A stretch of 64,000 nucleotides of DNA from the sequence record PZ049694.1; one strand, given 5' to 3'. Every line of letters begins with the position of its first letter. The stretch's first letter is position 1. This document shows, one piece after another, positions 27,356 to 28,175 of the stretch. The notes below the pieces were generated by a model. That model worked only from the letters and a program-made list of their open reading frames with translations. It made no database searches and was not told the origin of the DNA. Source of the DNA: a phage. A program made the position numbers and the translations under genes.

Positions 27356-27397
27356 TATACCTTGTCGGGGTTTCCACCTACTAAGGCAAGTGTTTGT

Positions 27398-27470
27398 ACG
27401 AAACGCCGGGATTCGAACCCGGTTATTAAGCAGTTGACGCTACTCAATATTTTTAAAAGGCCATATCTCG
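27398..27470 (-). pseudogene. tRNA-like remnant: intact T-arm and acceptor-like pairing, degenerate D and anticodon arms
   Basis: minus strand ccgggTTCGAATcccgg T-arm then cgtttcg; candidate 5' strand cgagata pairs 6 of 7; no canonical cloverleaf could be drawn by hand. Confidence 0.3.
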
Positions 27471-27657
27471 ACCATATCCGAACGTTCCGTCAAAAACGCT
27501 ACTCGGCTTACGGCAAAGATATTTCCTCGAATCGGTAATTCTTTGCGCCGTTTCTGCTGTGATGTAAGGGGATATTAACAAATCATAAAGATTTATTAAG
27601 ACAAGTCCTTACTCAGGGAACATCAGTCCGACGACTTGCCGGTAGCGACCCGGCTTC
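27471..27657 (-). ncRNA. non-coding tract between tRNA genes and terminator; candidate small stable RNA(s)
   Basis: about 190 nt with no ORF on either strand; several hairpins (gccgg-gtcgcta-ccggc); T4 carries stable species 1/2 RNAs in its tRNA region (by analogy only). Confidence 0.25.
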
Positions 27658-28002
27658 TTATTTTGACATATCATCAATTTGTTCTCTACGTCTACGCCAT
27701 AGATTAATTACTTCATCAACACATTCAGCATTTGGTATATGACGACAATAGTATAGTGATTCGCGTTTCTGGAACCGATGTTGTAATGGAATTTCGTTTA
27801 AAAGGTCTTTACGGTCAAAGTATTCAAAACTAGTTAACCCGGAACGGTTTTTAAGAAACTTCCAATGTCCGAATTCATTTTGAAAATAGACATAATCAGC
27901 ATGCTGATACAGCGAATTAATTAACCTATCGGAAATAACTGTTTCACGTTCGTTAAAATAAAACGTTAAGTCATGAACTACCAGATAAATATTGCCTTTC
28001 AT
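27658..28002 (-). CDS. hypothetical protein, 114 aa (start trimmed to ATG MKGNIYLVV)
   Basis: track ORF N-terminus overlaps tRNA-Arg; internal ATG has a GAGGA Shine-Dalgarno. Confidence 0.5.
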   Translation of the reverse strand: MKGNIYLVVHDLTFYFNERETVISDRLINSLYQHADYVYFQNEFGHWKFLKNRSGLTSFEYFDRKDLLNEIPLQHRFQKRESLYYCRHIPNAECVDEVINLWRRRREQIDDMSK

Positions 28003-28020
28003 ATTTTCCTCACTTAAAGT

Positions 28021-28097
28021 TGGTCGAGACAGAAGGATTCTAACCTTCAACCTACGGATTAGAAGTCCGTTGCTCTATACAATTGAGCTATGCCTCG
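28021..28097 (-). tRNA. tRNA-Arg (anticodon TCT), CCA encoded
   Basis: hand-folded cloverleaf: acceptor CGAGGCA/TGTCTCG, anticodon arm ACGGA-CTTCTAA-TCCGT, T-arm GAAGG-TTAGAAT-CCTTC, 3' ACCA. Confidence 0.75.
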
Positions 28098-28100
28098 GAT

Positions 28101-28175
28101 TGGTGACCCTGGCTGGTTTCGATCCAGCTACCTATCAGTTATGAGCTGACAGCTCTCCCATTGAGCTACAGGGCC
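28101..28175 (-). tRNA. tRNA with CAT anticodon (Ile2-type by T4 analogy, or Met), CCA encoded
   Basis: acceptor GGCCCTG/CAGGGTC, D-arm GCTC-AATGGGA-GAGC, anticodon arm GTCAG-CTCATAA-CTGAT, T-arm GCTGG-ATCGAAA-CCAGC; 3 nt from tRNA-Arg. Confidence 0.75.

Follow-up and report, generated by a model that had tools for sequence, protein, structure and literature searches.

We analysed a 64,000-nucleotide (nt) stretch of phage DNA (sequence record PZ049694.1; hereafter the window), in which two tRNA genes, a small protein gene and homologues of the T4 RNA genes rnaD and rnaC lie one after another. The nearest relatives were Escherichia phages HX01 and vB_EcoM_JS09, with 99.8% identity over 901 bases around the locus, and the same 901 bases matched 820 T4-type phage records; this places the window in the genome of a T-even-type myovirus. 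The minus strand carries most genes here and every feature of the tRNA/rnaD/rnaC region (Table 1). We propose that a T4-type phage tRNA transcription unit has its 3′ end here, with all parts on the minus strand in the order tRNA(CAU), tRNA-Arg(UCU), a gene for a protein of 114 amino acids (aa), rnaD, rnaC, a spacer hairpin and an intrinsic terminator. The annotated order in phages Aplg8, RB5 and T4 is tRNA-Arg, rnaD ("species 2 RNA"), rnaC ("species 1 RNA") and terminator. From the sequence comparisons, we put at about 90% the probability that the region consists of two real tRNAs, a small gene and homologues of rnaD and of a four-helix rnaC at the end of a T4-type tRNA operon. Both RNAs have been known since the 1970s, including from sequencing work of that decade, so the identity of the tract downstream of the tRNAs is not new.

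Table 1. Features of the tRNA/rnaD/rnaC region, in window coordinates
Feature	Position	Strand	Basis
tRNA, anticodon CAU, encoded CCA; most likely tRNA-Ile2 (lysidine type, reads AUA)	28101..28175	-	ARAGORN; Rfam RF00005, 59.4 bits
tRNA-Arg, anticodon UCU (reads AGA), encoded CCA	28021..28097	-	ARAGORN; Rfam RF00005, 71.1 bits
114-aa protein gene, phrog_3355 (function-unknown family), GAGGA ribosome-binding site upstream	27658..28002	-	ORF list; PHROG E=4.5e-50
Homologue of T4 rnaD (species 2 RNA), ~119 nt	about 27660..27542	-	Alignment to annotated rnaD of RB5, Aplg8 and T4
Homologue of T4 rnaC (species 1 RNA), 139 nt, predicted tRNA-shaped four-way junction	27397..27535	-	97.8% identity to T4 rnaC; covariance model
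rnaC P1, 5′ strand CGAUUCG, pairing with CGUUUCG (27405..27399); acceptor-like stem	27528..27534	-	Pairing in 35 sequences
rnaC P2, long interrupted hairpin in the D-arm position; apical loop UUGACG (27493..27488)	27458..27527	-	Both-side changes at 14/19 pairs
rnaC A-rich conserved linker between P2 and P3	27457..27450	-	Window coordinates of the model
rnaC P3, 10-bp hairpin; loop CGUCAA (27439..27434) complementary to the P2 loop, candidate kissing loop	27424..27449	-	35 sequences
rnaC T arm CCGGG-UUCGAAU-CCCGG (27422..27406) and P1 3′ strand CGUUUCG (27405..27399)	27399..27422	-	Sequence; pairing in 35 sequences
Trailer between rnaC and terminator, hairpin CAAACACUUGCC...GACAAGG	27356..27396	-	Alignment, fold
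Intrinsic terminator AGCCCCUUCC-GAAA-GGUUGGGGCU followed by U6; ends the tRNA/rnaD/rnaC unit	27326..27354	-	Fold; ARNold annotation at the homologous site of Aplg8

The rnaC homologue was identical to T4 rnaC (NC_000866 70908..71046) at 136 of 139 nt, with three substitutions, and was the same over ~140 nt in the window, RB5 and Aplg8. A covariance model of rnaC, trained on 8 homologues, recovered 30-37 full-length matches at 125-163 bits and scored the window copy at 158.8 bits (E ~1e-36). The homologues came from Tequatrovirus, Mosigvirus-type, Karamvirus, Moonvirus, Gelderlandvirus, Kanagawavirus and Marfavirus phages and from some unclassified phages, and the hosts in the set include Enterobacter, Klebsiella, Salmonella, Citrobacter, Kosakonia and Edwardsiella. 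The identity to T4 was only 57.1% for tRNA-Arg and 72.0% for the CAU tRNA, compared to 97.8% for rnaC; by this measure, rnaC is much more tightly constrained than the cluster's tRNAs. RNA sequencing of T4 classed rnaC and rnaD as late, and a Northern blot with an RNAC probe served as validation (PMC9697503).

A preliminary description of the region had pointed to a tRNA-like element at 27398..27470 with a textbook T arm. The T arm was indeed found (CCGGG-TTCGAAT-CCCGG at 27422..27406 on the minus strand, followed by CGTTTCG), and the element proved to be the 3′ half of rnaC, made up of the T arm and the 3′ strand of the terminal stem. The partner of this acceptor-like strand lies ~125 nt upstream, at the 5′ end of the 139-nt RNA. 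The tract 27320..27660, which had been described as free of open reading frames (ORFs), held just short ORFs of 42-58 aa on both strands, every one with a TTG start, and is composed of the rnaD homologue, the rnaC homologue, the spacer hairpin and the intrinsic terminator. Every feature named in that description was present where it had been placed. One of the two explanations it offered, a small stable RNA with a tRNA-like 3′ end, was correct and corresponds to the 3′ part of rnaC, whereas the other, a decayed tRNA left over from the larger T4 cluster, did not stand. It was also right that the tract is non-coding and ends in a terminator, but it had missed that the tract holds two RNAs, rnaD and rnaC, long known as T4 genes, as well as the 114-aa gene.

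The single-sequence fold of rnaC had a free energy of -50.5 kcal/mol (z=-4.21), with the 5′ end paired to the 3′ end. RNAalifold analysis of 8 rnaC sequences showed compensatory changes at 21 of 40 pairs. We then scored 35 rnaC sequences, taking as controls the same alignment with partners slid by 1-3 columns. Altogether 97.6% of the cells were paired, compared to 35-49% in the controls, and changes on both sides were seen at 26 of 45 pairs, compared to 4-8; pairing and covariation thus indicate a secondary structure shared by the homologues. Two central U·U oppositions in P1, a tandem U·U, were invariant (35/35), and the third P1 pair switched between A-U and G-C (13 versus 22 sequences). The middle pair of the T stem changed from G-C to U-A among the homologues. 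A single nucleotide joins P3 to the T arm, which is stacked directly on P1, and the linker J2/3 between P2 and P3 reads UUUAAAAA. The 3′ tail (27398..27395 in the window) is U-(A/C)-C-A followed by A; the Klebsiella Marfavirus-type copies have exactly UCCA, and the others UACA. In the resulting model, rnaC folds into a four-way junction of tRNA shape, in which the acceptor/T-arm stack is normal and a D arm and an anticodon loop are missing.

The apical loops of P2 and P3 are complementary to each other. All six loop-loop pairs were paired in every sequence (100%, n=35), as UUGACG/CGUCAA in 28 sequences and as UUGGCG/CGCCAA in 7. The two loops were otherwise invariant, and their joint change to UUGGCG/CGCCAA, a single A-U to G-C covariation, was confined to seven Marfavirus-type sequences. 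This complementarity suggests a kissing loop between P2 and P3.

A BLAST search with 27320..27660 matched 807 phage records, with coverage of at least 80% in 680, and the annotated records among the matches (RB5, Aplg8, ATK47 and T4) label the site rnaC/rnaD. rnaC was found in about 770-820 of 50,697 phage records, all with Enterobacterales hosts, and a strict rnaC pattern had 0 matches in 185,579 bacterial and archaeal genomes. The strict pattern gave ~22 copies in IMG/VR, and 12 metagenome loci were all full-length rnaC by the covariance model, the long contigs among them (about 100-174 kb) having the size of T4-like genomes; a second pattern added no further lineage in IMG/VR. About 12 of 36 matches to a looser pattern had no confirmation from the covariance model and were due to chance, and four of the ten weak matches of the model itself (14-25 bits), those in loci L017 and L019, overlapped ordinary tRNA genes. 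No Rfam family covers rnaC or rnaD: scans of the whole window at the gathering threshold and of 27250..27720 at E up to 10 returned the two tRNAs and otherwise sub-threshold noise. rnaC was always on the same strand as the surrounding tRNA cluster, as observed in six named genera, and the window copy lies downstream of tRNA(CAU), tRNA-Arg and rnaD and before the terminator. In Karamvirus, Moonvirus and Gelderlandvirus, rnaC starts 4-5 nt after tRNA-Trp and stops 1-6 nt before tRNA-Gly; it is thus flush between tRNAs, and its ends must come from the enzymes that act on these neighbours.

The rnaD homologue lies directly 5′ of rnaC with a gap of ~6 nt, likewise in T4 and RB5, and shows 85.7% identity to T4 rnaD (NC_000866 71053..71171). 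Its 5′ hairpin (GCCGG-GUCGCUA-CCGGC) is accompanied by a core that is invariant, a distal hairpin that varies and the terminal helix GUCGUCG/CGGCGC, and the window copy folded at -35.0 kcal/mol (z=-2.66). Fifteen rnaD homologues share the 5′ hairpin, the core AAGUCGUCGRACUGAYGUUCCCUG ... AUCACAGC..GAARCGGCGCA and the variable distal hairpin. Pairing among these 15 was 84% compared to 28-50% in slid controls, with both-side changes at 9 pairs compared to 4-6, counts that are biased by the derivation of the structure from the window sequence; the comparative support for the modelled structure is real but modest. Two competing folds of the core, a local hairpin (100% paired) and a long-range pairing (89%), were not decisively separable, and the terminal helix is invariant and thus carries no covariation information. 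The 5′ hairpin, the core and the place immediately 5′ of rnaC are the same as in T4, whereas the distal hairpin of the window copy has changed in sequence with its pairing kept.

The 3′ end of rnaD is more variable. It reads GCGCA-AAG (GCGCAAAG) in the window and GCGCA-CCA (GCGCACCA) in T4 and RB5, the only two phages with GCGCACCA, compared to GCGCACC(G/A/T) in most relatives and GCGCACAG in some. The terminal helix is followed by A-CC(G/U) or A-CAG in other T4-type relatives and by A-GGA in the Marfavirus copies. The window copy thus lacks the encoded 3′ ACCA of T4 and RB5. Nor does it start directly after tRNA-Arg, a position that would allow release by tRNA processing, as the 114-aa ORF lies between them. 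A diverged rnaD core was also present in Klebsiella Marfavirus phages, elsewhere in the cluster. In Klebsiella phage PWKp16 (locus L016, 885..975 and 975..1247), an rnaD-like core follows tRNA-Asn, and ~270 nt without an ORF and a tRNA(CAU) precede rnaC. On the opposite strand, the rnaD 5′ hairpin followed by TTCTTATTTT (27638..27654, plus strand) was the sole terminator-like site in a 2-kb scan; it might stop antisense transcription, or it might be a coincidence. In a T4-like phage evolved on a semi-permissive host, a convergent single-nucleotide polymorphism in rnaD arose in all lines (PMC12685909).

The trailer that links rnaC to the terminator shows conservation with T4, RB5 and Aplg8, although it is 9 nt shorter in the window. 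The strong terminator reported after the tract was recovered as a G+C-rich hairpin with a U run at 27354..27326, a site annotated as a terminator in Aplg8; a simple terminator scan missed it because of its internal U·U pairs. A T4 late-promoter motif, TATAAATA, lies at 27317..27324 on the minus strand, 1-2 nt past the U run of the terminator and ~36 nt before the next gene (ATG at 27281). By its sequence, this arrangement is a putative terminator-promoter junction. No such motif was found upstream of rnaD or of the tRNAs.

ARAGORN called exactly two tRNAs in the 64-kb window, with anticodons tct and cat, and Rfam placed both far above the RF00005 gathering score of 29 bits. The two programs agreed at exact coordinates with the cloverleaves that had been folded by hand in the preliminary description, 3 nt (ATC) apart and each with an encoded CCA at its 3′ end, and neither cloverleaf was rejected. 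Near-identical phages annotate the counterpart of 28021..28097 as tRNA-Arg. The ARAGORN label of the cat tRNA was Met, based on the anticodon alone. However, it agrees with T4 tRNA-Ile in the acceptor stem (GGCCCUG/CAGGGUC) and at the start of the D arm, and its E. coli relatives in 5,426 complete genomes were only CAT-anticodon tRNAs, labelled tRNA-Ile in RefSeq. As read from the sequence, it is not initiator-like, with G1-C72 paired and an anticodon stem without three consecutive G-C pairs. Its acceptor stem has the pairs C4-G69 and C5-G68, which we take to be determinants for the lysidine synthetase TilS. The CAU tRNA is thus most likely of the AUA-reading isoleucine type (tRNA-Ile2, with lysidine), as had been suggested by analogy with T4.

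Codon use in the window ORFs was 11.3 AUA and 7.6 AGA per 1000 codons. Both codons are rare in E. coli, and the phage uses them several-fold more often. It is therefore reasonable to read the two tRNAs as supplements of isoacceptors that are poor in the host. By eye, a sequence resembling a middle promoter with a MotA box was seen just upstream of tRNA(CAU) at 28189..28211 on the minus strand (TGCTCTA, a 10-nt spacer and CATAAT, with 6/7 and 5/6 matches).

The product of the 114-aa gene had just a sub-threshold match to DUF2654 in Pfam. For the three neighbouring ORFs, Pfam gave nothing usable and PHROGs gave only function-unknown families. In T4 and RB5 the junction of tRNA-Arg and rnaD is 1-2 nt long (2 nt in T4) and contains no gene, whereas the window has the 114-aa gene there; in T4, the homing endonuclease gene segB flanks tRNA-Arg on the opposite side. 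The cluster appears to have a hotspot of gene insertion here.

Several points weigh against the reading of the region as a T4-type rnaD/rnaC unit with a mimic-like rnaC, or against parts of it. The ends of rnaC and rnaD in the window were carried over from the T4 annotation, and the two RNAs are known here from their sequences, the expression evidence being that of T4. The window rnaD lacks an encoded CCA, and because a gene stands between it and tRNA-Arg, its 5′ end must be processed in another way than in T4. The P2 and P3 loops covary through one evolutionary event in one clade, which supports a loop-loop helix without proving it, and the kiss predicted from the loop sequences could equally be intramolecular or reciprocal and intermolecular. 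In the group of Enterobacter phage MY742 (loci L014, 1499..1644; L028; L045), UGCAUGC has taken the place of UUCGAAU in the T loop, with no loss of the T stem or the remainder of the RNA; the T-loop consensus was lost in this lineage, and recognition of the T loop thus appears not to be universally required. Finally, that rnaC is a tRNA mimic binding a tRNA-recognising protein is something we infer, and we consider it possible rather than likely.

RNase P and 3′ exonucleases recognise the acceptor/T-arm stack. By analogy, the acceptor/T-arm minihelix of rnaC is probably a handle for RNase P and the 3′-trimming enzymes, which would excise the RNA from the tRNA precursor and confer stability. 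The P2/P3 body, locked by the kissing loop and devoid of an anticodon loop, would be the working surface, and rnaC might then act on a tRNA-recognising protein as a decoy or scaffold rather than in decoding. A more specific version, to which we give a still lower probability, is that rnaC is a dedicated mimic whose minihelix with the tandem U·U binds a host or phage protein that recognises tRNAs, serving for instance as a decoy for a processing enzyme or for a defence nuclease directed at tRNAs, with the P2/P3 loops locking the fold or joining a homodimer. Dedicated mimicry would fit the convergent rnaD mutation on a semi-permissive host (PMC12685909) and, if true, would be the first functional and structural assignment for a phage RNA that has been an orphan for ~50 years.

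rnaC and rnaD could instead be mainly cis-acting modules for the processing and stability of the polycistronic tRNA precursor, with no function in trans, although we find this improbable. Such a role agrees with the constant co-orientation with tRNAs, with their position in T4-type phages, where they close the cluster on its 3′ side ahead of the terminator, and with a tRNA-like minihelix that would recruit the same processing enzymes. However, the loops and linkers (UUGRCG, CGYCAA, UAAAAAU and the tandem U·U) are near-invariant over the six named genera, beyond the needs of a protective hairpin, and other genera have rnaC in the middle of the array rather than at its end. Moreover, discrete stable species accumulate in T4 (PMC9697503).

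We consider it more improbable still that rnaC or rnaD are regulatory small RNAs that base-pair with host or phage mRNAs. Reviews and omics papers label them "small regulatory RNAs" (PMC9697503), and conserved single-stranded segments such as the J2/3 linker and the rnaD core would be available for pairing. However, there is no known target (PMC3014915), the rnaC loops with the highest conservation complement each other and are hence not free, and the A/U-rich linker has a low-complexity sequence.

The 3′ part of rnaC has been called a tRNA in several places, and the 3′ 93-95 nt could in principle be a genuine but unusual long tRNA, of class II or Sec-like. ARAGORN called a 95-nt tRNA-Met in phage PG7 (locus L004, 3051..3145) and a 96-nt tRNA-Phe in an IMG/VR contig (locus L019, 7816..7911), and GenBank records (H91, H118 and H136) label the 3′ two-thirds of rnaC tRNA-Met or tRNA-Lys. 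In the window, the best result for 27398..27490 as a canonical tRNA was the Rfam tRNA-Sec model (16.6 bits compared to a gathering score of 47, E=1.5), aligned via the pairing ACGGAACG/CGUUUCGU, and ARAGORN made no call there. A 93-nt tRNA drawn with this acceptor pairing fitted the T4-type and PG7 sequences and was rejected, since the pairing is broken in the Melville-/Marfavirus-type homologues. In these copies the 5′ strand ACGGAACG is swapped for unrelated sequence, while the terminal P1 stays 100% paired. In addition, the called anticodon differs between phages (Met, Phe or Lys), the scores are far under the Rfam thresholds, and the 5′ 45 nt of rnaC are conserved equally with the rest. 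A long tRNA is thus very unlikely, and the sequence comparison indicates that the tRNA-Met, tRNA-Phe and tRNA-Lys calls on rnaC are artefacts that recur systematically across T4-like genomes.

The decayed tRNA mentioned above would be a functionless remnant of the larger T4 cluster left to drift. The element does combine a perfect T arm and an acceptor-like strand with the absence of a D or anticodon arm, and the phage has 2 tRNAs compared to 8 in T4. As had been noted, there is no cloverleaf here: the best match in the Rfam tRNA clan was sub-threshold, and the Rfam tRNA model itself had no match on 27250..27720 even at E up to 10. ARAGORN found no tmRNA, and the other tRNA-like Rfam families were sub-threshold (tmRNA_permuted with 10.1 bits compared to 47, mascRNA with 14.2 compared to 42.5). 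However, drift in a pseudogene would make it the least conserved part of the cluster, yet rnaC is the most conserved, down to the ~140 nt shared with RB5 and Aplg8. Furthermore, the 3′ strand pairs with the 5′ end of the 139-nt RNA with compensatory changes, and T4 has the same RNA beside its full tRNA set. Conservation and covariation have thereby already refuted this explanation. Equally slight is the chance that the tract codes for small proteins, as the short ORFs on both strands and the coding sequence (CDS) calls in many deposited genomes might suggest, since every ORF starts with TTG, the substitutions are compensatory in RNA helices, the element has a tRNA on either side, at a distance of only 1-6 nt, in Karamvirus, Moonvirus and Gelderlandvirus, and the T4 products are characterised stable RNAs (PMC9697503).

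The main value of the assignment of rnaC and rnaD is a correction of annotation. In many published genomes the two RNAs are unannotated, as in HX01 and JS09, or overlaid by spurious CDSs and false tRNAs; many records have "hypothetical protein" CDSs over both. Beyond annotation, rnaC outdoes the phage's own tRNAs in conservation (98% compared to 57-72% to T4). The covariation-supported model of rnaC, with its tandem U·U and covarying loops, offers useful leads and concrete mutations for an old T4 question.

Among known RNAs, ROOL and GOLLD are, like rnaC, structured non-coding RNAs of phages and prophages found near tRNA genes or islands. Covariation gave the first sign of their conserved kissing loops, some of which proved to be intermolecular (PMC12286853). 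However, ROOL and GOLLD are several hundred nt long (many GOLLD RNAs exceed 800 nt), have no sequence or structural relation to the 139-nt tRNA-shaped rnaC, and had no Rfam match here; oligomerisation of rnaC by analogy with them is speculation. The tRNA-like domain of tmRNA and the bacterial Y-RNA-like YrlA are further cases in which an acceptor/T-arm module is grafted on a non-tRNA body, as in rnaC. In contrast to these, rnaC lacks the G3·U70 pair, a tag reading frame and a Ro-binding stem; the Rfam match of the tmRNA family on rnaC (10.1 bits) covered the T arm alone, and YrlA was absent among the matches at E up to 10.

Compared to tRNAs and the minihelix substrates of RNase P, rnaC has the same 7-position acceptor-like stem on a 5-bp T stem, UUCGAAU loop, four-helix junction and 3′ tail U-(A/C)-C-A. 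It differs in the lack of a D arm and of a 7-nt anticodon loop and in the tandem U·U of its acceptor stem, and its linkers are unlike those of a tRNA (0 nt for P1-P2, ~9 nt for P2-P3 and 1 nt for P3 to the T arm). T4 rnaC is the direct orthologue. The two share the place at the end of the cluster before the terminator and the predicted four-way junction, and they differ by the three substitutions and by the shorter stretch from rnaC to the terminator in the window.

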